NCBI GenBank assembly: GCA_963851265.1
Contig: CAWKNZ010000008.1
Location: 64,001 to 128,000, forward strand
DNA from: an uncultured Gemmatimonadales bacterium
GTDB taxonomy: Bacteria; Gemmatimonadota; Gemmatimonadetes; Gemmatimonadales; Gemmatimonadaceae
DNA: 64,000 bases
Direction of reading: 5' to 3'
Shown here: piece after piece, positions 1,617 through 61,900 of the stretch
Layout: the number at the start of each line of letters is the position of its first letter
How positions within the stretch are numbered: position 1 is the stretch's first letter
Notes under the pieces: model-generated
Seen by the model: only the letters and a program-made list of their open reading frames with translations
What the model was told of the DNA's origin: nothing
The model's database searches: none
Program-made: the position numbers and the translations under genes

Positions 1617-2945
1617 ATGCGCACCGCACACCGCCGTCTACCGCCCCACGCCCTCCTCGCCGCCGCGTTAGGCGTCGCCGCGCCCGCGGCCCGCGCGCAG
1701 CCGCCCGCCCCGCCGACGGCCGTTCGTTTCGGGCGGCTGGTCGACGGCACGGGGGCCGTGATCCGCGACGCCGTCGTGGTCGTCGAGGGCGATCAGGTGC
1801 GGCGCGTCGGCACGGGCGATGCCGCGGTGCCCGCCGGGGCCCGCGTCGTCGACCTGCGCCGCTTCACCGGCATCCCGGGCCTGATCGACGCGCACACGCA
1901 CATGACGTTCTACTGGGACCGCAGCCCCGGCACGCGGCCCTGGGCGCAACTCGGCACGCTCGGCGCTGCGGTCACCGTGTTCCTCGCCCAAGAGAACGCG
2001 CGCAAGACGCTCGCGACCGGCGTGACGACGGTGCGCGACCTCGGCTCGTGGGAGTACACGGATCTGGCGATGCGCGACCTCATCGCGCGCGGCGCGATGG
2101 TCGGGCCTCGCATGTTCGTCGCGGGCTACGGCCTGCAGATCACGAGCACGCCCTACCGGCCCGGCGGCGCGCCGCCCGCGCCCGGCCAGGCCGACGGCGT
2201 CGCGGAGGTCGAGCGCGTGGCGCGCCAGCAACTCGCCGCCGGCGCCGACTGGGTGAAGATGTACGCGTCGACCGGGAGCGACCAGGACGTCACCGGGTTC
2301 CAGACGTTCGGCTACGACGAGATCAAGGCCGCGGCCGACGTCGCGCACCGCGCGGGCAAGCGCATCGCGGTGCACTCCTACGGCCCCGACGGCGCGCGCG
2401 ACGCGGTGCGCGCCGGCGTGGAGTCGGTCGAGCACGCCACCGACATGGACGACGAGACCCTGCGCGAGATGGCGCGGCGCGGCACGGTCTACGTGCCCAC
2501 CGTCGAGCACAACCGCTACTACATCGCGCACCGCGCCGAGTACGGCTACGACCAGGCCGCGGCCGACCGGCTGGAGGGATACGTGCAGCGCAACTTCGCC
2601 ACGCTCCGGCGCGCCGTGCAGGCGCGCGTACCGATCGCGATGGGCTCCGACGCCGTGTTCACCGGCTTCGGCGAGAACACGCGCGAGCTCGCGTGGTTCG
2701 TGAAGGCGGGCATGACGCCGGCGCAGGCGCTCGCGGCCGCGACCACCACCGGCGCCGCGCTGCTCGGCATGCGCGGTCGATTGGGCGTGGTCGCCCCGGG
2801 CGCGTACGCGGACCTCGTCGCCGTCGACGGCGACCCGCTCGCGAACGTCGATGCCGTGATCCGCGGCGTGCGCTGGGTGATGAAGGGCGGGGAGGTGGTG
2901 GTCGATTCGACGCGTGCCGATGCGCCGCGCGGAACGGGGCGCTGA
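1617..2945 (+). CDS. Secreted metal-dependent amidohydrolase (Xaa-Pro dipeptidase-like)
   Basis: PGLIDAHTH, GVTTVRDLG, KMYAS, VEHA, GSDA motifs; signal-peptide-like N-terminus from ATG 1617. Confidence 0.88.
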   Translation: MRTAHRRLPPHALLAAALGVAAPAARAQPPAPPTAVRFGRLVDGTGAVIRDAVVVVEGDQVRRVGTGDAAVPAGARVVDLRRFTGIPGLIDAHTHMTFYWDRSPGTRPWAQLGTLGAAVTVFLAQENARKTLATGVTTVRDLGSWEYTDLAMRDLIARGAMVGPRMFVAGYGLQITSTPYRPGGAPPAPGQADGVAEVERVARQQLAAGADWVKMYASTGSDQDVTGFQTFGYDEIKAAADVAHRAGKRIAVHSYGPDGARDAVRAGVESVEHATDMDDETLREMARRGTVYVPTVEHNRYYIAHRAEYGYDQAAADRLEGYVQRNFATLRRAVQARVPIAMGSDAVFTGFGENTRELAWFVKAGMTPAQALAAATTTGAALLGMRGRLGVVAPGAYADLVAVDGDPLANVDAVIRGVRWVMKGGEVVVDSTRADAPRGTGR

Positions 2946-2947
2946 CG

Positions 2948-4276: not shown

Positions 4277-4695
4277 GCGTCGTGCGCGAGACGCGGGCGA
4301 TGCTCGCGGCGATGTGCCCGGCGCTCCGCGCCGGGGAGTACGTGTTCTGCTCGGTGCCGGCCGACGGCGCCGACGCCTGTCGCGGCCTCGAACCGCTGGG
4401 CTGGTTTCGCGAGGCCGAGGGCGTGTCGCTCATCCTCGAGCGCGCGGCCGCGGAGCGGGCGGGCGTCGGCGCCGGCGTGCCGCTGCGGTGCATCACGCTC
4501 GCCGTCCACTCCGCGCTGGACGGCGTGGGCCTAACGGCGGCCGTGGCCACCGCGCTCGCCGGGCGCGGGATCGCCGCGAACGTGGTGGCCGCGTTCCATC
4601 ACGACCACGTGTTCGTGCCGGCGCACGCGGCCGACGACGCCCTGGCGGTGCTGCGCGGAGTGCAGGCCGCCGCGGAGGCCGCCCCCGGCCCCTAG
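4273..4695 (+). CDS. ACT-domain protein (DUF2241/ACT_7 type)
   Basis: 'GEYVFCSV...FREAEGVSLIL...ITLAVHSALDGVGLTAAVATALAGRGIAANVVAAFHHDHVFVP'; GTGA overlap with the upstream stop. Confidence 0.85.
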   Translation: MSVVRETRAMLAAMCPALRAGEYVFCSVPADGADACRGLEPLGWFREAEGVSLILERAAAERAGVGAGVPLRCITLAVHSALDGVGLTAAVATALAGRGIAANVVAAFHHDHVFVPAHAADDALAVLRGVQAAAEAAPGP

Positions 4696-19014: not shown

Positions 19015-20445
19015 ATGTCCGACCACGCCTCGTCGTCCGACCACGACCTTGCCCGCCGCTACCGCCTGCTCGACATCGCCGCCGAGGGCGGCGGCGTGCG
19101 CAGCCGCCATGCGGAGGAGTTCACGACGGGGCGGACGGTGATGGTGCACGAGGTCGACGGGGTGAGGCCGGCGGTGGTCGAGCGGTTGGGAGAGCAGATC
19201 GGGCGACTGCTCCCGGCGGACAGGAGGCTGGTGCTCGAGACCGCGGCATTCCCCGCGGGCTTCGCCATAGTTACCGAATTTCTCCCCGACCTCGCGTCAT
19301 TCCCTGCGTGGCTCGACGCGCGGGTGCGGGGCGCGGACCGCGCGCGCTCGGCGGAGCCCGACGGTTCCCCCGTCGCGATGGAGTTCTACGTCGGCGCGCC
19401 GGCACCGGGCGGCGCGGCCGCGGCCCCCGCAGCCGCGGGGGCCGGCGAGTTCACCCGCCTCTTCGTGCTCGGCGGCAAGGTCTCGTTCGAGCCGGCCGCG
19501 GCCGGAGCGGCGGGGCCTGAGCGGGCGCGTCCCGCGTCCGACCCAGCACGGTCCGATTCGATCGACGCGGCCGTGGTGCCGGCACAGCCCCCTGCCCCGG
19601 CGCCGCCCGTCGCGTCGGTGCCGGCGCCGGTGGTACCAGTCACACCACCACTCGCCGCGGGCGAGTTCACCCGGCTGTTCAACGCGTCCACGCCGGCGCC
19701 GGCGGGCGTCGGGGCCGCGTCGCCGCTCGTGCCGGCGGGCCCGCCGTCACCCGCACCGCGGCCGCCCCGCGCCGACGTCGCCGATGGGCTGCCGGGTGCG
19801 CGACACGCCCCCGCGGCGGGACCGGACGCCCCGTTCGCGCCGCCGCCGTTGCAGCCGACGCCCGCGTCGCCGATGGTGCCGGCCCAGGCGCCGCGCCCGA
19901 CGACCCCGCATGCCGCGGCAGCACCGCCGTACGCGGGCGGCGGGGCGACCGGAGCGCTCGCGGCGCGTGCCGTTCCGCCGGAGGCGCTGGCCGACCCGCT
20001 CGCCGCGTTCGCCGCGTTCGTGGCCCCGCCGGCAGGGATCGCTCCGCCCGCCGCGGCGTGGCGCCCCGCGGAGGCGGTGGCGTCCGCGGAGGGACTCCCT
20101 CCGGCCGCGGTGGGGGGCGTCGCGCGCGGACCCGCGCCGTTCGCGCCCGCCGTCGCGCCGCCGTCGGCGAGCGCGGGCCCGAGCGATTACACCCGCCTGA
20201 TCCGGAACGCCGTCGCGCCACCCCCGCCCGCGCGCGCGCGGCCCGCGTCGCCCGACGCCGCCGTGTCGCCCGTGCGGTTCCCGCTCCGCCTGGTGGTCGC
20301 GGTCAACGTCGCCCTGCTGCTCGCGGCGGCGATCGTCCTCTACTTCGCGACCCGCCCGCCGCAGCCGGCGGGGAGCGGCGCCCCGGGTGCAGCGCCTAAC
20401 GGGGTGCCGAACGCCCCGCCGACCGTGGCCGCGCCCCGCCGGTAG
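19015..20445 (+). CDS. T6SS-associated membrane protein: degenerate kinase N-lobe + Pro/Ala-rich region with GEFTRLF repeats + C-terminal TM
   Basis: RYRLLDIAAEGG...GRTVMVH...IVTEFL..LASF..WL resembles Hanks subdomains I-V only; GEFTRLF x2 and SDYTRLI; TM LVVAVNVALLLAAAIVLYF. Confidence 0.7.
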   Translation: MSDHASSSDHDLARRYRLLDIAAEGGGVRSRHAEEFTTGRTVMVHEVDGVRPAVVERLGEQIGRLLPADRRLVLETAAFPAGFAIVTEFLPDLASFPAWLDARVRGADRARSAEPDGSPVAMEFYVGAPAPGGAAAAPAAAGAGEFTRLFVLGGKVSFEPAAAGAAGPERARPASDPARSDSIDAAVVPAQPPAPAPPVASVPAPVVPVTPPLAAGEFTRLFNASTPAPAGVGAASPLVPAGPPSPAPRPPRADVADGLPGARHAPAAGPDAPFAPPPLQPTPASPMVPAQAPRPTTPHAAAAPPYAGGGATGALAARAVPPEALADPLAAFAAFVAPPAGIAPPAAAWRPAEAVASAEGLPPAAVGGVARGPAPFAPAVAPPSASAGPSDYTRLIRNAVAPPPPARARPASPDAAVSPVRFPLRLVVAVNVALLLAAAIVLYFATRPPQPAGSGAPGAAPNGVPNAPPTVAAPRR

Positions 20446-34910: not shown

Positions 34911-34930
34911 CGCCTGACCTCCCGCGCCCC

Positions 34931-40577: not shown

Positions 40578-43364
40578 ATGCCGGTCACCCTCCGCGCCCT
40601 CATCGGCAAGCTCAACGCCCCGACCCGCTCGACCATCGAAGCGGCGGCCGGACTCTGCCTCTCGCGCACGCACTACGACGTCGAGGTCGAGCACTTTCTG
40701 CTCAAGGCGCTCGACGCCACCGACGGCGACCTCGCGCAGATCCTGCGGCACTACGGGGTGAACCGCGCGCGGCTCGCCGACGACCTCGCGCGCGGGCTGG
40801 ACCGGCTCAAGAGCGGGAACGCACGCACGCCGGCCCTCGGCCCGCACCTCGTCCAGATGCTCGTCGAAGCCTGGACGATCGGCTCGATCGAGTTCGGGGC
40901 GCCGCAGGCGCGCATCGGGCACTGCGTGCTCGCCCTCGTCTCGCACGACGAGCTGCGCCGCATGGCCGGCGAGATCAGCCGCGAGCTGGAGAAGATCCCC
41001 GCCGACGCGCTGCGCAAGGACTTCGTCGCGGTCACCGCGCCGTCGGCCGAGGCGGCCGCGGAGCTGCGCGGCTCGGACGGCGCAGCGTTAGGCACGGGCG
41101 CGGCGGCGGACGGCGCCCCCCGCCCGCCCGCGGCCGGTGGCCGCACGCCCAACCTCGACCAGTACACCGTCGACCTCACCGCCCGCGCCCGCGCCGGCAA
41201 GCTCGACCCGGTGTTGGGCCGCGACGCGGAGGTGCGGCAGGTGGTCGACATCCTCACCCGCCGCCGCCAGAACAACCCGATCCTCGTCGGCGAGGCGGGC
41301 GTGGGCAAGACGGCCGTCGTCGAGGGCTTCGCGTGCCGCATCGCGGAGGGGGACGTGCCCGAGCCGCTCCGGCACGTCACCCTCCGCACGCTCGACCTCG
41401 CCCTGCTGCAGGCCGGCGCGGGGGTCAAGGGCGAGTTCGAGAACCGCCTCAAGGGACTCATCGAGGAGGTCAAGAACTCGCCGACGCCGGTCATCCTCTT
41501 CGTCGACGAGGCGCACACGATGATCGGCGCCGGCGGGCAGGCGGGGCAGAACGACGCCGCCAACCTGCTCAAGCCGGCCCTCGCCCGCGGCGAGCTGCGG
41601 ACGATCGCCGCGACCACGTGGGCGGAGTACAAGAAGTACTTCGAGAAGGACCCCGCGCTCTCACGCCGCTTCCAGCTGGTCAAGGTCGAGGAGCCGGGGG
41701 AGGAGCAGTGCCTCGTGATGCTGCGCGGCGTGGTCCCGGCGCTCGAGGCGCACCACCGGGTCCGCATCACCGACGACGGGCTCGACGCGGCCGTGCGCCT
41801 CTCGCACCGCTTCCTGCCCGACCGCCAGCTCCCCGACAAGGCGGTGAGCGTGCTCGACACCGCGTGCGCGCGGCTCGCGTTAGGCCAGCAGGCGACGCCG
41901 GCCTCGGTCGAGGCCGCGCGGCGCGAGCTCGACGACCTCGCCGTGCAGGCCCGTGTGCTCGGCCGCGAGGCCGCGCTCGGCGCCGACCACGGCGAGCGCC
42001 TCGGGGCGATCGCGGCGCGGCGCGCGGAGCTGGACGCGCACCTCGCCGCGCTGACCGAACGCTGGAACGCGGAGAGCGCCCTCGTCGGCAAGGTGCGCGC
42101 GCTGCGCGCCCGGATCGAGGACGGGGCGGACGACCTCCCCGCCTTACGGGCAGAGCTCGCGGCGCGGCAGACGGCGCTCGAGGCGCTCCAGGGCGAGACC
42201 CCGCTCGTGCGCGTCGCGGTCGACGCGTCGATCGTCGGCGAGGTGATCTCGGGGTGGACCGGCGTCCCCGTCGGCAAGATGCTCCGCGACCAGCTCGGCC
42301 TCATGCTGCAGCTCGAGCGCCGCCTCGGCGAGCGCATCATCGGGCAGGACCACGCGTTGGGCGCGGTCAGTCGCCGCGTGCGCACCTCGGCGGCCAAGAT
42401 CGAGGACCCCAACAAGCCCAAGGGCGTCTTCATGCTCGTCGGCCCCTCGGGCGTCGGCAAGACCGAGACGGCGCTCGCGCTGAGCGACCTGCTCTACGGC
42501 GGCGAGCAGAACCTCGTCACCGTCAACATGAGCGAGTTCCAGGAGGCGCACACCGTCTCCACGCTCAAGGGCTCGCCGCCCGGCTACGTGGGCTACGGCG
42601 AGGGCGGCGTGCTCACCGAGGCCGTCCGGCGCCGCCCGTACTCGGTGGTGCTCCTCGACGAGGTCGAGAAGGCGCACCCCGACGTGCTCGAGCTGTTCTT
42701 CCAGGTGTTCGACAAGGGCGTGCTGGAGGACGGCGAGGGGCGGCAGGTCGACTTCCGCAACACGCTCATCCTGCTCACGACCAACGCGGGCACGGACACG
42801 ATCATGAAGCTGACGGCGGACCCCGAGACCGCGCCCGCGCCCGACGCGCTCGCCGCCGCGCTCAAGCCCGAACTCGACCGCGCGTTCAAGCCGGCCTTCC
42901 TCGGCCGCATGGTCGTGGTGCCCTACCTCCCGGTGCGCGACGAGCACCTCCGGCGCATCGTCCGCCTCAAGCTCGGGCGGATCGCGCGCCGGCTGCGCGA
43001 GACGCACGCCGTCACGCTCGCCTACGACGACGCGCTCGTCGACGCCGTGGCCGCGCGCTGCACCGAGGTGGAGAGCGGCGCGCGCAACGTCGACCACATC
43101 CTGACCAACACCATGCTCCCCGAGCTGTCGCGCCTGCTGCTCGAGGCGGCCGGCGCGGGCACGCGGCCGGGTGCGTTGCGCGTCGGCGTGGACACGACCG
43201 GCGAGCTGACCTACGCGGCGGGCGACGGCGCACCGTCCGCCGGGGCGACGCCAGACGGGGCGACGAACGACCCCGCGTCCGAAGCGGCCGACGTCCGCGC
43301 GGCGGTGCGCGACCCCGGGTACTCGGTCGCGCCGCCCGAGGCCGCGCCGCTGGCGGCCCGGTGA
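40578..43364 (+). CDS. tssH: T6SS AAA+ ATPase ClpV/TssH
   Basis: ClpV N-terminus (LIGKLN...AAAGLCLSRTHYDVEVEH), RRRQNNPILVGEAGVGKT, GPSGVGKTETA, NMSEFQEAHTVS. Confidence 0.97.
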   Translation: MPVTLRALIGKLNAPTRSTIEAAAGLCLSRTHYDVEVEHFLLKALDATDGDLAQILRHYGVNRARLADDLARGLDRLKSGNARTPALGPHLVQMLVEAWTIGSIEFGAPQARIGHCVLALVSHDELRRMAGEISRELEKIPADALRKDFVAVTAPSAEAAAELRGSDGAALGTGAAADGAPRPPAAGGRTPNLDQYTVDLTARARAGKLDPVLGRDAEVRQVVDILTRRRQNNPILVGEAGVGKTAVVEGFACRIAEGDVPEPLRHVTLRTLDLALLQAGAGVKGEFENRLKGLIEEVKNSPTPVILFVDEAHTMIGAGGQAGQNDAANLLKPALARGELRTIAATTWAEYKKYFEKDPALSRRFQLVKVEEPGEEQCLVMLRGVVPALEAHHRVRITDDGLDAAVRLSHRFLPDRQLPDKAVSVLDTACARLALGQQATPASVEAARRELDDLAVQARVLGREAALGADHGERLGAIAARRAELDAHLAALTERWNAESALVGKVRALRARIEDGADDLPALRAELAARQTALEALQGETPLVRVAVDASIVGEVISGWTGVPVGKMLRDQLGLMLQLERRLGERIIGQDHALGAVSRRVRTSAAKIEDPNKPKGVFMLVGPSGVGKTETALALSDLLYGGEQNLVTVNMSEFQEAHTVSTLKGSPPGYVGYGEGGVLTEAVRRRPYSVVLLDEVEKAHPDVLELFFQVFDKGVLEDGEGRQVDFRNTLILLTTNAGTDTIMKLTADPETAPAPDALAAALKPELDRAFKPAFLGRMVVVPYLPVRDEHLRRIVRLKLGRIARRLRETHAVTLAYDDALVDAVAARCTEVESGARNVDHILTNTMLPELSRLLLEAAGAGTRPGALRVGVDTTGELTYAAGDGAPSAGATPDGATNDPASEAADVRAAVRDPGYSVAPPEAAPLAAR

Positions 43365-43398: not shown

Positions 43399-45360
43399 AT
43401 GAGCACCGCGGCGGGCGCGGTCGCGCAGGCGGGGCGCCCGGCCACGGCGGCGACCCCCTTAGGCGGTGACGCGCTCGTCGTGGTGCGCGTCGCCGGCACG
43501 GAAGAGCTGAGCCGCCCGTTCCTGTTCACCGTGGACTTCGTGTCGCGCGAGGGCGGCGTCGCGCCCGCGGCCCTGCTCGGCAAGCCGATGGCCCTGTCGT
43601 TCGAGCTGCCCGAGGGGGGCGCGCGGCCGGTGCACGGCCTCGTGCGCCGGTGGACGGCGCTCGGGTCCGCGGGGCCCGCCGGGCTGTTCCGCTACCGCGC
43701 GGAGCTGGTGCCGTGGGTCTGGATGCTCTCGCTCTCGAGCGACTGCCGCACCTTCGAGCGCCAGTCGCCGCTCGACGTGATCGAGGCGGTGTTCACGCAG
43801 GCGGGCTACCACGACTTCCGCCGCCGGGTCGCGTCGCCGCCGCCGGTCGCGCCCTACGTCGTGCAGTACGACGAGACCGACCTCGCCTTCGTCTCGCGCC
43901 TGCTCGAGGACGCCGGGCTGTACTACACGTTCGAGCATTCGGCGGACAAGCACACGCTCGTGCTCACCGACGCGCGCGGCGGGGCGGTGCCGGCCGGGCA
44001 GGTCGCGTCGGTGCCGATCGTCGGCCCCGAGCCGCACGGCGGGAACGCCGGCGACGTGGCGAGCGTGCCCAACGCGATCACCGGCTTCGAGCGCGACTAC
44101 GTGGTGCACGCCCGCGCCGTCGCGTTAGGCGACGCGCACCTGCTGCGCGCCGCGGACCGCGGTTCGTCGACCAGCGACCGCCCGGGTGCCGCGGGAGAAC
44201 GCTTCGCCTTCCTGGGCGACCTGGACGGCACGCCCGAGGCGGGGGTCGCTGCCGCGCGGGCGCGCCGCCGGATCGAGGCCGAGGAGGCGCTCGGGGACGT
44301 GGCGCACGGCACGTCGAGCTGCCCCGGGCTCGCGGCGGGCACGCGCGTCACCGTCACCGGCGGCCCGCACGGCGCCGCGGGCGCGGACTACCAGATCGTG
44401 CGCGTCACGCACGCGCTCGAGATCGGCGACGTGGCCGCGGGCGGCGGCCTCACGTCCAAGTACGAGAACACGTTCACCGCGATGCCGGCGGCCACGCTCT
44501 ACCGCCCCGCGAGCGTGACGCCGCGCCCCGCGGTGCGCGGCACGCAGACCGCGCTCGTCGTCGGCGCGGGGGGCGCCGGACAGATCGACGTCGACGCGCA
44601 CGGCTGCATCCTGCTGCAGTTCCCCTGGGACCGCGGCGCGGGCAAGGACGGCCGCTCGCAGCACCGCGTGCACGTGGCGTCGGTCTGGTCGGGCACGGGC
44701 TGGGGCGCGGTCCAGCTGCCGCGCCTCGGGCAGCGCGTGCTGGTCGAGTACCTCGGCGGCGACCCCGAGCGGCCGATCGTCACGGGCCGGGTGTACACGA
44801 GCGACAACGCGCACCCGTACGGCCTGCCCGGGAGTAAGACGCAGAGCGGCATCAAGACCCGGTCGGTCGGCGGCGGGGCCGACAACTGCAACGAACTGCG
44901 CTTCGAGGACAAGCAGGGCGACGAGCACGTCTACCTGCAGGCCGAGAAGGACCTGCAGGTCCACGTCAAGCACGACGAGACGCGCGAGGTGCTCAACGAC
45001 CGCACGGCCACGATCACCAACAACGAGACGCTGACCGTCAAGCAGGGCGACCGCACCGCGACCGTGGAGATGGGCAACGACGCGCTCGCGGTCAAGATGG
45101 GCAACCTCACGATCGGCGTGTCGCTCGGGAACGTCTCGATCAAGGCCGACGTCGGCAGCATCACGCTGGAGGCGTTGCAGGGGGTGACGCTCAAGTCGGG
45201 CCCGATGAGCTCGCTGCAGGTCACGCCCGCCGGGATCACGGTCAAGGGCGCGATGGTGAGCCTGGAGGGCCAGGTGACGGCGCAGATCAAGGCGCCGATG
45301 GTGCAGGCCAGCGCCGACGCCATGCTCATGGCCAAGGGCGCGATCACGATGATCGGCTGA
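43399..45360 (+). CDS. vgrG: T6SS spike protein VgrG (no toxin extension)
   Basis: EELSRPF, VQYDETDLAFVSRLLE..G.YY.F, GTQTALVVG, FPWDR, LPRLGQ.V.VEY..GDPERP, SGIKTRS, NELRFEDK, QAEKD, gp5-like C-terminal repeats. Confidence 0.97.
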   Translation: MSTAAGAVAQAGRPATAATPLGGDALVVVRVAGTEELSRPFLFTVDFVSREGGVAPAALLGKPMALSFELPEGGARPVHGLVRRWTALGSAGPAGLFRYRAELVPWVWMLSLSSDCRTFERQSPLDVIEAVFTQAGYHDFRRRVASPPPVAPYVVQYDETDLAFVSRLLEDAGLYYTFEHSADKHTLVLTDARGGAVPAGQVASVPIVGPEPHGGNAGDVASVPNAITGFERDYVVHARAVALGDAHLLRAADRGSSTSDRPGAAGERFAFLGDLDGTPEAGVAAARARRRIEAEEALGDVAHGTSSCPGLAAGTRVTVTGGPHGAAGADYQIVRVTHALEIGDVAAGGGLTSKYENTFTAMPAATLYRPASVTPRPAVRGTQTALVVGAGGAGQIDVDAHGCILLQFPWDRGAGKDGRSQHRVHVASVWSGTGWGAVQLPRLGQRVLVEYLGGDPERPIVTGRVYTSDNAHPYGLPGSKTQSGIKTRSVGGGADNCNELRFEDKQGDEHVYLQAEKDLQVHVKHDETREVLNDRTATITNNETLTVKQGDRTATVEMGNDALAVKMGNLTIGVSLGNVSIKADVGSITLEALQGVTLKSGPMSSLQVTPAGITVKGAMVSLEGQVTAQIKAPMVQASADAMLMAKGAITMIG

Positions 45361-52074: not shown

Positions 52075-54222
52075 ATGCTCCGATCGATCACCGCGGCCCG
52101 CGCGGCCGCACGCCGCGCCGCGCCGTTGCTCGCCGCGATGACGCTCGTGGCCCTCCGAACCGCAGGTGCGCAGTCGCTGCACCCGTCGACGTCGCCCGCA
52201 CCGGCGGCGGCCGGCCCGGCGGGTGACTGGCCCGTGTATGGCGGCGGCGACGATCACTCGCACTACACCACGCTCGACCAGATCTCGCCGGCGAACGTGC
52301 GGCACCTGAAGGTCGCGTGGACCTACGCGACGCACGACGAGTTCTCCGGCTCGGAGATGCAGGCGAATCCCGTCGTCGTCGACGGGGTGCTGTACGCGAC
52401 CACGCCCAAGCTGCAGGTGTTCGCGCTCGACGCCGCGACCGGGAAGGAGCGCTGGCGCTTCGACCCGAACAACGGCGTCCCGCCGACGTCACGCATCCGC
52501 CACCGCGGCGTCGTCGTCACCGGCGACCGCGTGCTCTTCAACTACCGCAACCGCCTGTACGCCCTCGACCGTGCGACCGGACGGCCGATCCGCACCTTCG
52601 GCGACAGCGGATGGGTGGACCTGCGCGCCGGGCTCGGGCGCCCCGTCGAGGGCCTGTCGGTCTCGGCGAGCACGCCGGGGGTCGTGTTCGAGGACCTGCT
52701 CATCATGGGGAGCACCGTCCCCGAAGTCCTGCCCAGCGCGCCCGGCGACATCCGCGCGTACGACATCCACACCGGCGCGCTGCGCTGGAGCTTCCACACC
52801 ATCCCACACCCGGGCGAGTTCGGGTACGAGACGTGGCCGCCTAACGCCTGGACGATCAGCGGCGGCGTCAACGCCTGGGCGGGCGTGACGCTCGACCGCC
52901 GGCGCGGCGTGGTGTACGCCGCGACCGGCTCGGCGTCGTACGACTTCTACGGCGCGAACCGCGTCGGCGACGACCTGTTCGCCAACACGGTTCTCGCGCT
53001 CGACGCGCGTACCGGCAAGCGCATCTGGCACTACCAGGTGCTGCGGCACGACCTGTGGGACCGCGACCTGCCGGCCGCGCCGGTGCTCGTGACCGTGCGG
53101 CGCGACGGCCGGCCGGTCGACGCCGTCGCGCAGATCACCAAGACGGGGCACGTCTACGTGCTGGACCGCGACACGGGCGCGCCGCTCTTCCCCGTCGAGG
53201 AGCGCCCGATGCCGCCGGCCGTCCTCCCGGGCGAGCGCACGGCCGCGACGCAGCACTTCCCCCTGCGGCCGCCGCCGTTCACGCGCCAGCGGCTGACGCG
53301 CGCCGACCTCACCACGCGCACGCCGGCGGCGCACGCGGCCGCGCTCAAGCTGTTCGACGCGTACGGCACGCGGCACCCCTACGACCCGCCCAACCTGCAC
53401 GGCACGATCATCTTCCCGGGCGTCGACGGCGGCGGCGAGTGGGGCGGGCCGGCGTTCGACCCGACGACGGGACTGCTCTACGTGAACGCGAACGAGATGG
53501 CGTGGCTGCTCAAGCTCGTGCCGCGGAGCGACCGGTCGCTCTACGCGGCGAACTGCGCCAACTGCCACGGCGCCGACCGGCAGGGGACGGCGATGGCGCC
53601 GTCGCTCGTCGCCGTCGGCGGCCGACGGACGCCGGCGCAGATCACGCAGATCATCCGCGAGGGCACGGGGCGCATGCCGGCGTTCGGCAGCGCGCTCGAG
53701 GGGCGCGCCGTGGCCGACATCGTGAACTACCTGCGCACCGGCCACGACGCGTCGGTGGCGGCGGGCCCCGACCCGTTCGGCGTGCCGTACCGCACGGCGT
53801 ACTTCGACATCTTCTCCGACCCGGACGGCTACCCGGCGATCAAGCCGCCGTGGGGCACCCTCTCGGCGATCGACCTGAACGGCGGGACCATCCGCTGGTC
53901 GGTCCCGTTCGGCGAGTACCCCGCGCTCGCCGCGCGCGGCCTGCGCAACACCGGCAGCGACAACTACGGGGGCGCGATCGTCACCGAGAACGGCCTGCTC
54001 CTCATCGGCGCGACGACGCACGACAACACCTTCCGCGCGTTCGACAAACGCACGGGACGCCTGCTCTGGTCCGCCCCGCTCCCCGCCGCCGGCAACGCCA
54101 CGCCGGCCACCTACATGGCCGGCGGCCGGCAGTACGTCGTGATCGCCTGCGGCGGCGGCAAGAACGGCGCGCCGAGCGGCGGGACCTACGTCGCGTTCGC
54201 GCTGCCCGACGGCGCGCGTTAG
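52075..54222 (+). CDS. PQQ-dependent dehydrogenase (glucose/quinate type) with embedded c-type haem domain
   Basis: DWPVYGG, QISPANV..LKVAW, ALDAATGKERW, HDLWDRD, GGGEWGG, CANCHG haem motif, KPPWG.L.AIDL, FRAFD..TG.LLW; signal peptide. Confidence 0.9.
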   Translation: MLRSITAARAAARRAAPLLAAMTLVALRTAGAQSLHPSTSPAPAAAGPAGDWPVYGGGDDHSHYTTLDQISPANVRHLKVAWTYATHDEFSGSEMQANPVVVDGVLYATTPKLQVFALDAATGKERWRFDPNNGVPPTSRIRHRGVVVTGDRVLFNYRNRLYALDRATGRPIRTFGDSGWVDLRAGLGRPVEGLSVSASTPGVVFEDLLIMGSTVPEVLPSAPGDIRAYDIHTGALRWSFHTIPHPGEFGYETWPPNAWTISGGVNAWAGVTLDRRRGVVYAATGSASYDFYGANRVGDDLFANTVLALDARTGKRIWHYQVLRHDLWDRDLPAAPVLVTVRRDGRPVDAVAQITKTGHVYVLDRDTGAPLFPVEERPMPPAVLPGERTAATQHFPLRPPPFTRQRLTRADLTTRTPAAHAAALKLFDAYGTRHPYDPPNLHGTIIFPGVDGGGEWGGPAFDPTTGLLYVNANEMAWLLKLVPRSDRSLYAANCANCHGADRQGTAMAPSLVAVGGRRTPAQITQIIREGTGRMPAFGSALEGRAVADIVNYLRTGHDASVAAGPDPFGVPYRTAYFDIFSDPDGYPAIKPPWGTLSAIDLNGGTIRWSVPFGEYPALAARGLRNTGSDNYGGAIVTENGLLLIGATTHDNTFRAFDKRTGRLLWSAPLPAAGNATPATYMAGGRQYVVIACGGGKNGAPSGGTYVAFALPDGAR

Positions 54223-57200
54223 GCGCCGGGCGCCGGCCGGGCGTCGACGGCCGGCACGTCGAGTTCCCGGAGGAGCCGGTTGAACGCGGCGACGTCGCCG
54301 GCCTCGAGCGCGCGCAGGCGGCCGAGCTGCGCGTCGACCTTCCCGGCCAGCTCCGCGTAGACCTGCAGCGACTGCGCGGTCGGCCCGCGGTCGAAGCTGT
54401 GGACGTTGCGGTTGGCGGTGAGCAATTGGTTGTACAGCGCGACCGGGTAGTGCAGGGTGATCTGGTCGGCGTGCGAGTTCACGTCGGCGAGCGCGCTCCG
54501 CACCGCCTCGAGTTGCGCCCGCAGCGGCTGCGCGGCCGCGGCGACCCGCGCCGCGTACGGCCGCGCGTGCGTCTGCTCGACGCGCGCCCCGAGTTGCGCC
54601 TGCATGGCCTCGATGCGGCGCACCGCGTCGGCGAGCTCGTTCACCTTGTCGACGGTGCGCCGCGTGAGGTCGAACGTCGCCGCGTGCTCGGCGGCGGAGG
54701 CGCCCACGCGCGGGTCGTCGACGACGCGCAGCGGCTGCGTCTGCGGCCGGCCGTCGACCGTCAGGCGCACGGCGTACGCCCCGGGTACCGCCGTCGCGCC
54801 GGCGTACGTTCCCTCGTCGTTCACCACGTCCTTGAGCGCCCGCACGCCGGCGTAGCGCAGGTCCCACACGAAGCGGTTGAGCCCCGCCCGCGCGGGCACG
54901 ACCGAGTCCGCCGGGGCGTAGCTCGCGCTGTCCGACTCGACGCGGCGCCGCTGCGACGACTGCCCCGTGGTATCGTAGGCGGTAAGGCGCGCGAGCGAGT
55001 CGGCCGCCGTGTACGCCCTGGCCGACGTGCCCGACGAGTCGCGGCCGCCCCCGCGCGTCGTCGCGGCCCGGCCGGCCGAGTCGTGGCTCGTGTAGGTCCG
55101 AATCACCGCGCCCGCGGCGTCGAGGAACTCGAGCCGGATGGGGGTCTTCGGCCGTTCGCGCAGCCAGTAGTCGACGTACGCGCCGGCGGGCGGGTTCTCC
55201 CCCGCGTCGCCCTCGGCGCGCCGCGACCGGCCGGCCGCGAAGCGCACCGCCGTGGCCGGGGCGAACAGGTGCGCCGGCTCGGCACGCACGGCGTCGGTCA
55301 TCTGGCGCAGCGGCGCGATGTCGTCCATCACCCAGAAGGCGCGCCCGTGCGTCGCCGCGATGAGGTCGTTGTCCTTGACCGCCAGGTCGCGCACGCTCAC
55401 GCGCGGCAGGTTGAGCTGCAGCGGCCGCCAGCGCGCGCCGTCGTCGAACGACACGAAGACGCCGGTCTCGGTGCCCGCGAAGAGCAGCCCGCGCCGCCGC
55501 GGGTCCTCGCGCACGGCGCGCGCATAGCTGCCGGCCGGGATGCCGGCGTCGATGCGCGTCCAGCTGCGGCCGTAGTCGGTCGTGCGCAGCAGGTACGGGC
55601 GGAAGTCGTCCTGCTGGTAGCGGTTGGCCGCGATGTACGCGGTGCCCGGGTCGAAGTGGCTCGGCTCGACGACGCTCATCTTCGTGAACGGGCCCAGGCC
55701 GGGCGGGGTGACGTCCTGCCAGGTCACGCCGCCGTCGCGCGTGAGGTGCACGAGCCCGTCGTCGCTCCCCGCCCAGATCAGCCCCTTCGTCAGCGGCGAC
55801 TCGGCCACGGCGAACGCCATCGCGTACCACTCCGTGCCGGTCATGTCGCCGTGAATCGGGCCGCCCGAGCGCCCGAGCGTGCGCGGGTCGGCGCGCGCGA
55901 GGTCGGGCGAGATCCGCTCCCACGAGTTGCCCCCGTTGGTCGAGCGGAAGAGGTACTGGGCCGCGGCGTAGAGCGTCTTGGGGTCGTGCGGCGAGAAGAA
56001 GAGCGGGAAGGTCCACGCGAACCGGTAGGGCACGTCCTTCGCCGCCCACCCGTCGTAGTTGTCGAGCCAGACCGCGACGTTGCGCGACTGGTTGGTGCGG
56101 CGGTCGTGGCGCCAGATCTCGCCCATGTAGCCGCCGCCGTAGGTGACGTTCGGGTCGGTCGGGTCGACGGCGATGTACGCGCTCTCGCCGCCGGCCACGG
56201 GCCACCAGTCCTGCCGCGTGATCGCGCCGTTGTCCGACCGGCTGGCGATCGACACGGTGGTGTTGTCCTGCTGCGCGCCGTAGATGCGGTAGGGGAACTG
56301 GTCGTCGGTGGTGACGTGGTAGAACTGCGACGTCGGCTGATTGTAGATGCTCGACCAACTCGCGCCGCCGTCGTAGCTGACCGTCGCGCCGCCGTCGTTG
56401 CCGTGGACGAGGCGCCGCGGGTCGCTCGGGTCGACCCAGAGCACGTGCGTGTCGCCGTGCGGCACGGCGACGCGCGCCCACGTGCGCCCGCCGTCGACCG
56501 AATGCCAGGTGCCTAACGTGTTGACGTACACGCCGTTCTCGTCGCGCGGGTCGGCCGTGACGCCCGAGTAGTACCACGCGCGCACCTGCCAGCGCTGGTC
56601 GCCGTTGACGCGCTGCCAGGTCGCGCCGGCGTCGTCGGAGCGGAAGATGCCGCCGCGCGGCTGCCCGGCGGAGTCGGGCGCCTCGACCGCGGCGTACACG
56701 CGGCGCGGGTTGGCCGGCGAGACCGCGACGCCGATGCGGCCGAGCGCCGTGTTGGGCAGGCCCGGGTTGGCGCTGACGTCGGCCCACGTGTCGCCGCCGT
56801 CGGTCGACTTCCAGAGGCCGCTCCGCCCGCCGCCGGCGCGCATCCCCCACGGCAGGCGCTGGACCCGCCACATCGCCGCGAACAGCACGCGCGGGTTGCT
56901 CGGGTCCATCGCGAGGTCGACCGCGCCCGTCGAGTCGTCGACGAACAACACCTGCTTCCACGTCCTGCCGCCGTCGGTGGTGCGGTAGACGCCGCGCTCG
57001 CGGTTGGGCCCGAAGGCGTGCCCGATCGCGGCCACGTAGGCCACGTCGGGGTCGCGCGGGTGGACGCGCACCGCGCCGATCTGCTGCGTGCCCGCCAGCC
57101 CGAGGTGCTGCCACGTCTCGCCGCCGTCCGTCGTGCGATACACGCCGGTACCGTAGGTCACGTCCTCGCGCAGCCCCGACTCGCCCGTGCCCACCCAGAT

Positions 57201-57647: not shown

Positions 57648-58949
57648 CTAACGGACCGGGGCGGGATCGCGCCGCACCACGCGCCCGTCCTTCATCACGA
57701 ACGCGACGCGCTCGGCGGCCTCGATCGTCTCCGACGGGTCGCCCGCGGTCGCGACGAGATCGGCCGCGAAGCCGGGCCGCACCTGACCGATCCGGTCCCC
57801 GAGTCCGAGCGAGCGCGCCGCGCGCGAGGTGGCGCTCACGACCGCGTCCATCGCGGGCTCGCCGCCGCGGCGCACGCGGCACACCAGCTCCTCCGCGTTG
57901 CGCCCGTGCGCGCCGGCGACGGCATCGGTGCCGAACACCAGCTGCAGCCCCGGCGTCGCGACCGCGTCGCGAATCCCGCGCTCGGCCAGCGGGAGCGCGC
58001 GCTCCATCGCCGCGAACCCGGCCGCGTTGTAGTTGCCGATCCCGTCGAACACCGGCCGGTTGTCGAGGTAGTTGCGGAAGACGAGCCCGCACTGCGGGTC
58101 GAAGTACGTCCCGCGGTCGGCCATCAGCCGCCGCGCGGCGTCGTCGGCGAACACGCCGTGCTCCACCTGCGTGCACCCCGCGCGGGCGGCCCGCGTCACG
58201 GCCTCGGCCGAGTGCGCGTGCACGAGGGCGCGCAGGCCCGACGCCCGCGCCTCGCCGCACGCGGCCGCGAGCTGCGCGTCGGACATCGTCGCGGTGCCGC
58301 CCTCGCGGATGCTCTTCGAGGCGAAGATCTTGATCAGGTCCGCGCCGTCGGCCTTGAAGCGGCGCACCGCCGCGCGCAGCGAGTCGGGGCTGCCGCCGCC
58401 GGTGCGTTCGTTGAGCGAGCCGAGCGAGGTGAGCACGCGCGGGCCCGGGATCGCGCCGCGGGCGATCGCGTCGCGCAGGGCGCGGTTCTCGGGCTCGCCG
58501 ACACTCTGCACGGTCGTGAAGCCCGCGCGCAGCGTGGCCCACGCGTTCGCCGCGCCGGCGAGCGCCTGGACGTCGGCGGGGTCGCCGTCGTCGGGCGTGT
58601 GCAGGCGACCGTGCGCGTTCACGTACCACGACAGGTGCACGTGCGTGTCGATGAGCCCCGGGAGGAGCGTGAGCGGCCCGAGGTCGACGCCGCCCGCGGG
58701 GAGCGGCCCGCGCGCCGGGCGTACCGCGGCGATGTCGCCGCCGACGACCACGACGTCCACGTTCTGCTGCCGCCCGCCGGTGCCGTCGAGCACGCGCGCG
58801 GCGCGCAGCACGACCGTGTCGCCGTCCGCGGCGAGCGGCGCGGGCCGCTGCGCGTGCAGCGCGGCGGCGCCCAGCGTGAGGCCTAACGCGGCGCCTATGG
58901 CGGCGCGGACGCGGGCCCCGGCGGCGCGCGCGAACCGCGGCACGCTCAA
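57648..58949 (-). CDS. Secreted metal-dependent amidohydrolase
   Basis: PGLIDTHVH, GFTTVQS, KIFAS, VHAH, VEHG, FGTDA, ADLV..GDP; GTGA-type overlap with the upstream gene. Confidence 0.88.
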   Translation of the reverse strand: MSVPRFARAAGARVRAAIGAALGLTLGAAALHAQRPAPLAADGDTVVLRAARVLDGTGGRQQNVDVVVVGGDIAAVRPARGPLPAGGVDLGPLTLLPGLIDTHVHLSWYVNAHGRLHTPDDGDPADVQALAGAANAWATLRAGFTTVQSVGEPENRALRDAIARGAIPGPRVLTSLGSLNERTGGGSPDSLRAAVRRFKADGADLIKIFASKSIREGGTATMSDAQLAAACGEARASGLRALVHAHSAEAVTRAARAGCTQVEHGVFADDAARRLMADRGTYFDPQCGLVFRNYLDNRPVFDGIGNYNAAGFAAMERALPLAERGIRDAVATPGLQLVFGTDAVAGAHGRNAEELVCRVRRGGEPAMDAVVSATSRAARSLGLGDRIGQVRPGFAADLVATAGDPSETIEAAERVAFVMKDGRVVRRDPAPVR

Positions 58950-61900
58950 CGCTCCGCGCCGGTGACCGGCGGCAGGCCGTGCGAGACGACGGCGAGGTTG
59001 AGCGCGGCCACGTCGCCCGCGACGACCTGGTCGAGCGCGCGCAGCTCGCGGTCGAGTTCGGCGGAGAGCTCGCGGTAGACGACGTAGGCCGCGGCCGTCG
59101 GGCGCGCGTCGCCGGTCTCGACGCTGCGGCCGAGGGCGGCGAGTCGGTTGTTGAGCTTGATCGGGAAGTTGAGCGGGTCCTGGCCGCTCCGATTGCGGAC
59201 CTGGTAGAGGTGCTCCTCGACCGTCGCGAGGCGCGCCGCCGCGGCGCTCGCCGCGCGGGCGACGTCGGGCGCGTTCGCGCGCGCGGCGCGGTCGGCCGCC
59301 TGGCTGCGCAGGCGCCGGATGCGGAGGACGGCGTCGTTCGCCGCGGACACGCGGTCACGGATCTGCCGCGCGAGCGCGAACTGCGCCTGCAGGTCGGCCG
59401 CGGTCACGCCGGTGAGCCGCGGGTCGGCACGCACCGCGAGCGGGCGCGTTTCGGTGGCGCCGCCCGCCGTGACGCGCACCTGGTACGCGCCGGGCACGGC
59501 GAGCGGCCCCTCCTCGGGCGAGGCGCTCCAGAGCACCATGCATTCGAACTTCGTCGCGCCCGGGTAGCGCAGGTCCCACGTGAAGCGGTTGAGCCCCGCG
59601 CGGCCGGTCGGGCGCGCCACCGCGGGGCGGCGGCGCGGCGTCTCGCACCCGCTCGGCTGCATGATCGTGTCGCGCGTGGCGGCGCTCGAGGGCTCAGCCG
59701 CGGGGCGTCGGGCGAGGCTCGCGCTGTCGCGCTCGGCGGCCGCGCGCGACTCGGCGGAATCGCTGGCGTACTGCCCGCCGCCGGTGTACGCGCGGACGAC
59801 CTTCCCCGCGCGGTCGAGGATCTCGACGCGCACCGTGTCGGCGGGGCGCGCGAGCGCGTACTGGATGCTCGCCTCGGTCACGCCGCGCGTGGCGACGCCG
59901 GGCGTGAAGAGCTGGAGCGCGGCGGCCGGCGCCGACGCCGCGCGCGCCTCGCGGATCGGCGTCACGTCGTCGAGCACGTAGAGCGAGCGGCCGTGCGTCG
60001 CGACGACGAGGTCGCGCCCCTCGACCACGACGTCCGACACCTGCGTGTCGGGCAGCTTGAGCGAGAGCGACCGCCAGTTCGCCCCGTCGTCCCACGACAC
60101 GTAGATCCCGTGTTCCGTGCCGGCGTAGAGCAGCCCGGCGCGCACGGGGTCCTCGCGCACCGCGTGCACATAGTCATCGGCGCGGATCCCGCCGACGATC
60201 TTGGTCCACGTTCGGCCGAAGTCGTGCGTCCGGTACAGGTACGGCGCGCGGTCGTCCAGCAAGTAGTTCTTCGCGGCGAGGTACGCCGTGCCGGGCGCGT
60301 GGGGCGACGCGTCGATCAGGCTGACGCGCGCGAACTTGGGCAGGCCCGCGGGCGTCACGTCGGTCCACGTCCGCCCGCCGTCGCGCGTGACGTGCGCGAG
60401 GCCGTCGTCCGATCCCGTCCAGATCACGTTCGCGTCGCGCGGCGACGGCGCCACGGTGAAGATGGTGCCGTAGATCTCGGGGCCGTTCATGTCCTGCGTG
60501 ATCGGCCCGCCCGTCGGGCCGAGCGTCGCGGGGTCGGCGCGCGTGAGGTCGGGCGACATGCGCGTCCACGTCTGCCCCTCGTCGCGCGTGCGCCAGAGGT
60601 GCTGCGACGCGGTGTAGAGCGTGCGCGGGTCGACGGGCGAGAAGACGATCGGGTACGTCCACTGCCAGCGCTCGGGGAGCGCACTCGCCGGCTCGCCGGA
60701 GAAGAAGCGCGGGTACACCTGCACGTCGCGGATCTGCCCGTTGGACCGGTCGTAGCGCGTCAGCAGCGCGCCCTGGCTGCCGGCGTAGAAGACGTCGGGG
60801 TCGCGCGGGTCCGGCGCGATGTACCCGCTCTCGCCGCCGCCGACGTCGTACAGCCAGTCGCCGAGCGTGCGCGAGCGCGCGCCGCGCAGGTTGGCCCAGT
60901 CGTTGGAGGGCAGACAGAGCGTCGTGTTGTCCTGCTGGGCGCCGCACACGTGGTAGGGGAAGTGGCGCGTGGTCGCCACGTGGTAGAGCTGCGCGGTCGG
61001 GAAGGTCTGGTCCGTCCACGTCGCGCCGGCGTTCACGCTCACCGTGCCGCCGCCGTCGTTCGCCTCGATCATGCGCCGGTTGTCGTTAGGCGCGATCCAG
61101 AGGTCGTGGTTGTCGCCGTGCGGCACCGCGAGCGTGCTGTCGAAGTGCAGGCCGCCGTCGTCGGAGCGGAAGAAGTTCACGTTGAGCACGTACACGCGGT
61201 CCTTCACCTGCGGGTCCGCGGTGACGTGCGTGTAGTAGAAGGCGCGCTGCCGCAGCTTGCGCTCCTCGCTCGTGCGCCGCCACGACGCGCCCGCGTCGTC
61301 GGAGCGGTACACGCCGCCGTCGGCCGCTTCGACCACCGCGTACACGCGCCGGCCGTCGACCGGGGACACCGACACGCCGATGCGGCCGACCACCCCCGTC
61401 GGCATTCCCGGCGCGCGCGTGAGCTCCGTCCAGTGCTCGCCGCCGTCGGTGCTCTTGAACAGCCCGCTCCCGGGCCCCCCGCTCTCCATCTTGTAGCTGA
61501 TGCGGTACGCCTGCCAGAGGGCGGCGTAGAGCACGTTCGGGTCGCGCGCGTCCATCGAGAGGTCGATCGCGCCCGTCCGGTCGTCGCGGTAGAGCACCCT
61601 GCGCCAGTGCTGCCCGCCGTCGGTGCTCTTGAACACGCCGCGCTCGGCGTTGCGGCCGGCGGGGTGGCCGAAGGCGGCCACGTACACCACGTCCGGGTTG
61701 CGCGGGTCGACGCGGATCTTCGAAATGGCCTGCGTCTCGGCGAGGCCGACGTGCGTCCAGGTCTTGCCGCCGTCGGCGGAGCGGTACACGCCGTCGCCCT
61801 GCATGATGTTGCCGCGGATGCACGTCTCGCCCATCCCGATGTAGACCACGTCGGGGTTGGATTCCGACACCGCGACCGCGCCCACCGAACTCGATCGCAA

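Follow-up and report, generated by a model that had tools for sequence, protein, structure and literature searches.

YGTTAGGC, a non-palindromic DNA word maintained on both strands of some Gemmatimonadaceae chromosomes, and its likeness to DNA-uptake sequences

A recurrent heptamer in a type VI secretion region

The window analysed here, by which we mean the whole stretch of 64,000 nucleotides at G000:C8:64001-128000 (contig CAWKNZ010000008.1 of an uncultured Gemmatimonadales bacterium, G000 being the assembly that holds it, with 4.60 Mb in 12 contigs at 73% GC), encodes a type VI secretion system (T6SS) cluster and ordinary enzymes, and genes of both kinds carry copies of the heptamer GTTAGGC. 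Together with a preceding pyrimidine this heptamer forms YGTTAGGC, a lineage-specific, strand-indifferent word of double-stranded DNA that is actively kept at about one copy per 0.7-3 kb in some Gemmatimonadaceae chromosomes. An exact count of GTTAGGC on both strands of the window gives 23 copies, 13 on the + strand and 10 on the - strand, at precisely the 23 coordinates listed by the original prediction, with none missing and none extra. Its rough expectation of about 5 copies was too high: 100 dinucleotide-preserving shuffles of the window average 2.23 copies (standard deviation 1.52, largest 6), none of the 100 reaches 23, and the excess in the window is thus about 10-fold. Several reading phases and rare codons had been predicted and are indeed seen: 11 copies are read in sense as xxG-TTA-GGC (Leu-Gly), six in antisense as xxG-CCT-AAC (Pro-Asn) and three as xGC-CTA-ACG, while three overlap stop codons, among them the predicted GCC-TAA stops of the tagJ and tssA genes at 32925 and 34905. 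The copies, in window coordinates, are:

1667..1673, + strand: copy, CGTTAGGCG, sense GCG-TTA-GGC (Ala-Leu-Gly) in the amidohydrolase gene 1617-2945
4529..4535, - strand: copy, antisense GGC-CTA-ACG (Gly-Leu-Thr) in the ACT-domain gene 4270-4695
20394..20400, - strand: copy, antisense GCG-CCT-AAC-GGG (Ala-Pro-Asn-Gly) in the gene 19015-20445
26446..26452, - strand: copy with T at -1, antisense GTG-CCT-AAC in the gene 26345-27388
28823..28829, + strand: copy, antisense TGC-CTA-ACG in the - strand gene 28339-29439
30101..30107, - strand: copy, antisense GCG-CCT-AAC-GGT close to the end of the VipA/TssB-type gene 29580-30131
32925..32931, - strand: copy, GCC-TAA-C forming the stop codon of the ImpE/TagJ-type gene 32229-32930
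33254..33260, + strand: copy, sense GCG-TTA-GGC in the TssA-type gene 32955-34910
34905..34911, - strand: copy, GCC-TAA-C forming the stop codon of the TssA-type gene 32955-34910
36147..36153, + strand: copy with T at -1, sense TTG-TTA-GGC in the TssF gene 35446-37320
36906..36912, + strand: copy, sense CCG-TTA-GGC in the TssF gene 35446-37320
37460..37466, + strand: copy with T at -1, sense CTG-TTA-GGC in the TssG gene 37284-38399
37592..37598, - strand: copy with A at -1, antisense GCG-CCT-AAC-TCG in the TssG gene 37284-38399
38324..38330, + strand: copy, sense ACG-TTA-GGC in the TssG gene 37284-38399
39169..39175, + strand: copy, antisense GGC-CTA-ACG in the - strand gene 39033-39887
41087..41093, + strand: copy, sense GCG-TTA-GGC in the ClpV-type AAA gene 40578-43364
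41879..41885, + strand: copy, sense GCG-TTA-GGC in the ClpV-type AAA gene 40578-43364
44124..44130, + strand: copy, sense GCG-TTA-GGC in the VgrG-type gene 43399-45360
52839..52845, - strand: copy, antisense CCG-CCT-AAC-GCC in the PQQ dehydrogenase gene 52075-54222
54218..54224, + strand: copy common to two convergent genes, at the TAG stop of the + strand gene 52075-54222 and the GCC-TAA stop of the - strand gene 54219-57581
56511..56517, - strand: copy, sense ACG-TTA-GGC in the - strand BNR/sortilin-type gene 54219-57581
58881..58887, - strand: copy, sense GCG-TTA-GGC in the - strand amidohydrolase gene 57648-58943
61085..61091, + strand: copy, antisense GCG-CCT-AAC-GAC in the - strand gene 58946-62209

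Fourteen of these copies fall within 28.8-44.1 kb, as had been stated, a density of 0.92 per kb where the genome averages 0.38 per kb. Since the density of the word varies among genes with their GC content at third codon positions (GC3), this interval is a local peak in density rather than a cluster of its own kind. The T6SS cluster itself has two TssK (VasE) paralogues, both on the - strand (17483-18904 and 20474-21877), with a 476-aa + strand gene between them.

The word across the genome

The enrichment extends over the whole genome. GTTAGGC occurs 1762 times in G000 (885 copies on the + strand and 877 on the - strand) and is present on every one of the 12 contigs at 0.33-0.55 per kb; Markov models of orders 1, 2 and 3 lead one to expect 160, 96 and 126 copies respectively, and under all three it ranks first among the over-represented 7-mers. 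Among words one mismatch away from it, those altered at the G, GG and C positions occur just 8-64 times. Maximal-order Markov models hide the word because its sub-words are nearly private to it, 1762 of the 1794 occurrences of TTAGGC having a G before them. The base at -1 is C in 1396 copies (79%), T in 243 (14%), G in 69 and A in 54; as C or T precedes most copies, the unit is the 8-bp YGTTAGGC. Apart from this position and codon periodicity the flanks of the copies are uninformative, which rules out a repeat element or a miniature inverted-repeat transposable element. The maximal-order models of G000 additionally bring out a second word family of the form AGC..GCT, for example AGCGCCT/AGGCGCT (2075 against 1040), AAGCGCT and AGCCGCT.

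A signal in double-stranded DNA imposed on coding sequence

With genes taken from a simple codon-score caller (3470 genes covering 86% of G000, with crude coordinates), 1276 of the 1762 copies lie inside genes, 304 are intergenic and 182 run across a gene boundary. The in-gene copies are read in sense as xxG-TTA-GGC (987) or GTT-AGG-C (24), and in antisense as xxG-CCT-AAC (196) or xGC-CTA-ACx (69). Against these 1011 sense and 265 antisense copies, shuffling of synonymous codons within genes yields 44 and 27 (maxima of 54 and 37 in 20 replicates), and resampling of codons from word-free usage yields 9 and 23 (10 replicates). Codon- and protein-aware nulls, which the original prediction had named as the possible ordinary explanation, thus fall short by more than 15-fold and leave the counts unexplained, ruling out a codon or dipeptide artefact. 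The imprint on codon usage is correspondingly large: 987 of the 1265 TTA codons of G000 (78%) are inside the word, with 278 TTA codons remaining elsewhere, as are 116 of its 403 TAA stops (29%), and TTA spells 584 of the 1982 NCG-Leu-GGC contexts in genes with 350 codons or more.

The two strands are filled alike. The word, as NCG-TTA-GGC, spells 16.7% of the sequences [Ser/Pro/Thr/Ala]-Leu-Gly (775 of 4635) and, on the opposite strand, 17.2% of the sequences Pro-Asn-[Val/Ala/Asp/Glu/Gly] (166 of 964), and Ala-stop is written GCC-TAA-C in 116 of 813. Fill is far lower in the two remaining frames, at 69/1824 (3.8%) for xGC-CTA-ACx and 24/3291 (0.7%) for GTT-AGG-C, compared with about 17% in those of TTA and CCT; a tRNA-Leu(UAG) gene is present in G000, and outside the word CTA is commoner than TTA. 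The preference at -1, with C far above T and T above A and G, is found separately in sense and antisense frames: Leu-Gly pairs are filled at 14.5-21.6% after NCG codons, 4-8% after NTG codons and at most 3.5% after others, and Pro-Asn pairs at 14-25% before G-initial codons, 5% before Thr (the sole A-initial residue with enough cases after Pro-Asn) and 1-3% before C-initial codons. The original prediction had described the two orientations as intermixed. This stands in so far as both strands carry the word, but it hides a 79% sense bias inside genes, for which the greater frequency of Leu-Gly over Pro-Asn fully accounts.

Between genes there are 292 copies, where 28-36 are expected from the composition of the intergenic DNA (8-10-fold). 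In spacers between co-directional genes 84 copies run along transcription and 77 are opposed to it, that is, there is no preferred orientation, and the density is 0.85 copies per kb in convergent spacers, compared with 0.32 in coding DNA. The equal fill of both strands and the unoriented intergenic copies indicate that what is recognized is double-stranded DNA and not RNA or peptide. The same observations rule out an RNA-level or translational signal of the kind represented by bldA-like TTA regulation.

Replication polarity and a Chi-like role

Word orientation tracks gene orientation in 50-kb bins of G000. The GC skew and GC3 skew of this assembly give no usable replichore signal, and with the locally dominant gene strand as a proxy three definitions of polarity return p=0.23, 0.005 and 0.50. 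The congener G004 is more tractable. On its contig C1 (2.99 Mb) parB lies at 1.52 Mb and genes switch convergently in orientation near 50 kb, and from this we infer the replichore and take the - strand as leading over 50-400 kb. Word occupancy in G004 is 99/357 (27.7%) on the leading and 36/163 (22.1%) on the lagging strand, a difference with p=0.20, and the leading strand carries 15 of the 32 intergenic copies. Over 400 kb of this genome 103 copies are on the + strand and 155 on the - strand, following the gene strand; the raw word skew of 62% agrees with the 74% of coding bases that are co-oriented, and hence there is no polarity beyond gene orientation. The argument of the original prediction against recombination hot spots of the Chi type and FtsK-orienting polar sequences (KOPS), made from a lack of strand skew, is supported by this replichore comparison in G004. 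Like KOPS and other architecture-imparting sequences the word is a frequent oligomer found along the entire chromosome, but KOPS are more than 85% skewed by replichore, and the difference in occupancy between the strands is here not significant.

A Chi-like signal, at which a helicase-nuclease (RecBCD, AddAB or AdnAB) would switch from degradation to recombination and thereby mark self DNA, was weighed against a profile of gene families in 28 genomes, 13 word-rich and 15 word-poor. Chi of Escherichia coli is an 8-mer found about once per 4.5 kb, and the word resembles it and the Chi sites of AddAB in being an over-represented 7-8-mer of similar density (about one per 2.6 kb) with a raw skew of 62-73% towards the majority or leading strand; moreover, G000 has an AddA/AddB-like operon (C3:244577-249942), and the one low p-value among its three local tests corresponds to 124/700 against 39/352. 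However, the other two definitions and G004 fail to support polarity once gene strand is controlled, and the word is built from rare codons, unlike Chi, which is built from common ones. The enzymes do not co-occur with the word either: RecC (PF04257) is found in 1 of the 13 word-rich and 1 of the 15 word-poor genomes, G000 not being among them, AddB of the alpha type is lacking, and the AddB-like protein of G000 is accessory, having matches at E<=1e-20 in 3 of the 27 other genomes, 1 of the 12 other word-rich ones and none of three congeners. In addition, word-poor relatives lack a comparable word of their own, judging from the sample of G005 described below. We accordingly reject a RecBCD or AddAB Chi system, and regard a Chi-like signal in general as very unlikely.

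Conservation of individual sites

Comparison of G000 with G004:C1:1-400000 yields 238 reciprocal-best orthologues with a median amino-acid identity of 87%. Of 268 opportunity sites conserved in both proteins, the word occupies 50 in both genomes, 18 in G000 only and 35 in G004 only, leaving 165 occupied in neither. G004 is thus occupied at 50/68 (73.5%) of the sites occupied in G000 against 35/200 (17.5%) of those unoccupied (odds ratio 13, p=7e-17), and a tblastn version of the comparison gives nearly the same values (54/73, or 74%, against 36/205). The rare codons outside the word are identical in both genomes in just 0-17% of cases (TTG 46/272, CTA 3/41, CCT 2/64, GGT 20/367), and inside it TTA is kept in 53/75 and CCT in 4/9. 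As rare codons elsewhere are kept at 0-17% and word sites at about 74%, the word has been held in place even though synonymous sites are effectively saturated. In G012, which is of a different genus, the word occupies 10 of the 19 opportunity sites that are conserved. An impression of high turnover, from 6 of 30 sites being common to the T6SS region of the window and three congeners, was dropped in view of the 74% retention in genome-scale orthologues; the figure is misleading because this region is only 69-84% identical in DNA among the congeners. Where a site is not shared, the partner codons are mostly CTC-GGC (25) or TTG-GGC (8), among the 47 unshared Leu-Gly pairs tabulated.

Distribution along genes and chromosomes

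Short gaps between copies are depleted. Relative to an exponential distribution, G000 has 29 gaps below 100 bp where 67 are expected and 49 below 200 bp where 132 are expected, and gaps below 200 bp are similarly scarce in G004 (8 against 31 in 400 kb) and G012 (14 against 30 in 80 kb). A stricter null, in which the 941 realized sites were placed at random on the 5599 opportunities that the two main frames offer, in 500 permutations, makes this sharper: 2 gaps against 23.2 below 100 bp, 4 against 45.2 below 200 bp, 49 against 105.3 below 500 bp and 154 against 188.8 below 1000 bp. At 100, 200 and 500 bp no permutation of the 500 came down to the observed value. Genes show the expected distribution of copy numbers, 1681 having no copy (1698 expected) and 130 having at least two (133 expected). 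A second copy near a first evidently brings little benefit.

Occupancy rises steeply with GC3, measured on the rest of the gene outside the word. In genes of at least 350 codons of G000 it is 7.2, 11.9, 17.4, 24.2 and 29.3% from the lowest to the highest GC3 quintile, in G004 it is 16, 26.5 and 34% by tercile, and the trend persists after conditioning on the flanking codons (13.8% to 40.3%). A word that contains A and T and needs a rare codon is thus densest in those genes on which the GC pressure of this lineage has acted most. GC3 may reflect recombination through GC-biased gene conversion, and the link would fit a process that builds up in long-resident or often-recombining DNA. Within genes, occupancy is somewhat lower in the first fifth (12-14%) than elsewhere (16-20%).

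These regularities bear on the possibility that the word is a functionless product of sequence-specific repair or of a gene-conversion bias, such as very-short-patch-type repair linked to a methyltransferase, or a nicking enzyme that converts near-matches. The former has reportedly been proposed for the highly iterated palindrome HIP1 (GCGATCGC) of cyanobacteria, which the word resembles in being a hyper-abundant octamer laid on coding sequence across a lineage. The extreme excess, the depletion of neighbours at the G, GG and C positions and the maintenance of sites would all suit such a process; the correlation with GC3 would suit one dependent on recombination or heteroduplexes, and unshared sites are often a single step away as TTG-GGC (8/47). 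But HIP1 is palindromic and tied to a cognate methyltransferase, and GTTAGGC differs from its own reverse complement and is hence not a palindrome of the HIP type. Canonical Vsr (PF03852) is encoded by none of the 13 word-rich and by 7 of the 15 word-poor genomes, and on this count we reject repair driven by Vsr. A conversion bias would moreover have to work against the 73% GC of the genome by turning CTC or CTG into the more A/T-rich TTA, and a process of mutation or conversion alone does not predict that copies closer than about 500 bp are avoided. Target words of restriction-modification systems are usually avoided and not enriched, the opposite of what is seen here. Overall, we consider an origin in repair or conversion bias improbable.

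At the level of the chromosome, the longest word-free stretch of G000 (45 kb, C1:182876-227962) holds mnmG, parA, parB and mnmE, and dnaA is inside another such stretch of 15 kb (G000:C1:2107-17073). Within 40 kb of parB the density of the word is 0.3-0.8 times the genome mean in all six word-rich genomes examined, and the five other than G000 have no void there. A conserved word-free zone at the origin was nonetheless rejected in favour of a mild depletion, as G004, G001 and G012 have copies 2-6 kb from parB.

The void and the low density near parB hint at chromosome layout, and thereby at the word being the binding site of an abundant chromosomal protein (nucleoid-associated, condensin-loading, nucleoid-occlusion-like or concerned with conflicts of replication and transcription), with selection acting on the density of sites. 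Such an explanation would further account for sites that are strand-symmetric, spaced out, maintained one by one and similarly dense on all 12 contigs. Against it, selection would have to overcome, site by site and about 1000 times over, what the rarest codon costs, an argument of the kind that led to drive models for uptake sequences; the void at parB is not conserved; and neither the 3-5-fold dependence on GC3 nor the range of 0.16-1.25 copies per kb between genera is predicted. No candidate protein was identified. We deem a chromosomal binding site unlikely, although it deserves more weight than the alternatives considered above.

Phyletic distribution and the integron core

The distribution among relatives was followed by counting the 8-mer CGTTAGGC, and across 201 genomes of Gemmatimonadota (G000 included) the enrichment is patchy. 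All five members of the genus of G000 that were examined are rich in it, with 1396 (G000), 2137, 727 (in a 1.7-Mb assembly), 1645 and 2415 copies. Elsewhere in the family, G012 has 6360 copies (5.1 Mb, 63% GC) and G008 has 605, and the other six genera of our first sample have 6-38. Eight of the 201 genomes reach at least 450 copies, namely G000, G107, G117, G152 and G181 (family f1) and G160, G199 and G206 (genus g61 of family f2); four are intermediate (173-337), and the remaining 189 hold 0-96, mostly below the count of the control word. G011, G071, G110 and G191 are among these background-level genomes, and no statement made here rests on them. Beyond the genus of G000 there are seven further word-rich genera in two families, most others being at background, and between genera the density ranges over 0.16-1.25 per kb. 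The core may vary: in G012 it is slightly shifted to CGTTAGG(C), and 80 kb of this genome contain 133 copies of CCTAACG and 118 of GCCTAAC. In the word-poor G005, from a sister genus, a sample of 120 kb shows no hyper-abundant word of its own that could be an alternative 'dialect', the 25-kb sample of G006 being too small to add to this. As for T6SS loci, two of 14 in Gemmatimonadota have 3-7 copies, and 66 loci of other phyla have 13 copies in 469 kb.

In word-poor Gemmatimonadota, GTTAGGC/GCCTAAC recurs in a different setting, as the exact outer boxes of attC sites in integron cassette arrays. We counted 44 attC pairs in nine loci, with boxes starting 50-140 nt apart around imperfect palindromes and with a pyrimidine at -1 in 84 of 88 boxes (C 43, T 41). 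At the ends of contigs the arrays show up as short one-strand series of copies spaced 500-700 bp apart, and genes for integron integrases adjoin two of them:

Cassette-array loci L047-L055: G015:C95:1-24000, G015:C43, G015:C80, G013:C3:1-8000, G082:C12:90891-94306, G082:C23, G086:C55, G133:C89

The one-strand 'islands' of word-poor genomes are thus ordinary cassette arrays, representing neither contamination nor the genome-wide phenomenon. G000 has an IntI gene as well, split into two pieces about 2 kb apart (C6:3005-6044) with an attC-like site beside it (C6:1591-1701), and a small array of four attC-like sites in G000:C10:188935-203785.

The identity of the word to these boxes in all seven letters and in the Y at -1 (the integron attC/attI core being GTTRRRY), taken with the split IntI gene and the few attC-like sites of G000, might suggest that the IntI core site spread through the genome as secondary recombination sites or cassette remnants. 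But only nine attC-like pairs are found in G000, comprising about 1% of the copies; the other 99% are solitary and have no hairpin, and the copies are without the attC palindrome and without the preference of attC for G at +2 and C at +3. They also stand in frame within conserved core genes, spelled by synonymous codons. Nor does IntI (TIGR02249) track the word, exceeding the cut-off in 7 of the 13 word-rich and 12 of the 15 word-poor genomes (19/28). An integron origin of the genomic copies is on these grounds rejected, and a tie to integrons is largely excluded as their source, being the least probable of the explanations considered here.

The same identity could be accommodated in another manner, in which an uptake signal coincides, through descent or selection, with the integron core. 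A receptor for the word would then import both the DNA of the organism's own kind and cassettes from the soil, coupling transformation to cassette capture; cassettes would be preferentially imported because every cassette carries the word twice, and the spread of the word through the genome would be a by-product of the uptake bias. The match of all seven letters and of the Y at -1 to attC boxes of the same phylum supports the coincidence; the presence of IntI does not track the word. We hold this reading as a whole to be highly improbable.

A possible DNA-uptake sequence

The core claim of the original prediction, that the heptamer is a DNA-level signal on coding sequence more akin to uptake sequences or HIP1 than to Chi or KOPS, is borne out by every test that was run. 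The underlying process recognizes 8 bp of duplex DNA on either strand, prevails over the use of the rarest codon, holds its sites for long, gains little from a second site nearby and is present in some lineages while lacking in their sisters. Judged by analogy, uptake-biased transformation followed by recombination is the only known mechanism with all of these properties. We therefore tentatively propose, with a confidence that stays somewhat below even, that YGTTAGGC may be a self tag of the DNA-uptake type, as in Neisseriaceae and Pasteurellaceae. In a transformation machine made of type IV pilus, ComEA and ComEC, a component at the surface or in the periplasm would preferentially bind fragments bearing the word; alleles with the word would enter cells and recombine into the chromosome more often than those without it; and this uptake bias, a form of molecular drive, would spread and maintain the word wherever the protein allows a synonymous spelling. 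By the same analogy the cells may be transformable, their uptake may be biased by the word, and the putative receptor may belong to the machine just described.

Components of such a machine are encoded by G000, including ComEC, DprA, three PilT-family ATPases and two secretins, one of these in a pilA...pilMNOPQ-like cluster. A ComEA-type gene lies directly upstream of pilB-pilT-pilC at G000:C7:759615-766960 (L067:7615-14960). Right after this comEA-pilB-pilT-pilC run there are fragments of a type I restriction enzyme, namely a T1RH-like C-terminal domain and a 67-aa SWI2/SNF2 stub.

The known uptake sequences offer the closest parallels. Like the DNA uptake sequence (DUS) of Neisseriaceae, the word is short, non-palindromic, present on both strands in over a thousand copies, apparently lineage-specific with possibly variant cores between genera, concentrated in preferred frames (987 of the 1276 in-gene copies being in one frame) and conserved in its copies between species. 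Unlike DUS, which has 10-12 bp, it has 7-8 bp and coincides with the integron core. With the uptake signal sequence (USS) of Pasteurellaceae it shares mostly intragenic copies, a favoured in-frame orientation, a spacing more even than random and a bias to gene ends, as seen in the 116 copies overlapping stop codons and in the density of convergent spacers. It differs from USS in the absence of AT-rich flanking segments, in its shorter core, in a host of 73% GC and in its need for the rarest codon. To our knowledge the USS receptor of Pasteurellaceae has not been identified. One earlier study describes known uptake sequences as biased in reading-frame orientation and towards gene ends (PMC2346458). 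In the abstract of a 2025 survey, known uptake sequences are described as biased to particular frames, about half of the DNA uptake enhancing sequences are placed in terminators, and Neisseriaceae and Pasteurellaceae are the only families named as having uptake sequences (bioRxiv 10.1101/2025.10.24.684340).

Several observations weigh against an uptake sequence. Competence genes are near-universal and occur in non-transformable bacteria too, as the control genomes illustrate. ComP (PF16732), the one known receptor of uptake sequences, has no match over the cut-off in any of the 28 profiled genomes, and a ComP-like receptor was rejected on this basis. Three proteins of G000 from two minor-pilin clusters were likewise rejected as the determinant, as they occur in both groups of genomes (23/28; 12/13 against 7-8/15; and 13/13 against 9/15, word-rich against word-poor). 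Only 304 of the 1762 copies (17%) are intergenic and just 6 inverted pairs of the word occur within 60 bp in G000, in contrast to the terminator pairs typical of DUS and USS and to the half of uptake enhancing sequences placed in terminators. Cores of DUS or USS have 9-12 bp, and the word is shorter. The xGC-CTA-ACx and GTT-AGG-C frames, although synonymous, are only sparsely used. A literature search for transformation in any member of Gemmatimonadota found no paper that addresses it, and every positive point would fit equally well with another word-binding protein whose sites are under selection. As the known receptor is absent and the association with terminators is weak, the uptake reading stays an analogy. 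Searches of the literature for the word or its 8-mers returned only primers and an integron paper, with no description of the word, and those combining Gemmatimonad with uptake sequence or competence returned nothing relevant.

Implications for Gemmatimonadota

Statistics of codon usage, gene finding and horizontal transfer in word-rich genomes are distorted by the word, whatever its role. Should it serve another purpose than uptake, it would still be an unusually clean DNA-level constraint, accounting as it does for 78% of TTA codons and 29% of TAA stops. If the proposal of an uptake sequence is true, Gemmatimonadota would provide a third independent case of tagged uptake, beside the two proteobacterial families in which it is known, and self-biased transformation would have evolved repeatedly. 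The word could then serve to tell native from foreign DNA in metagenomes and, Gemmatimonadota being an abundant and rarely cultured phylum of soils, would offer a handle on gene flow in soil.

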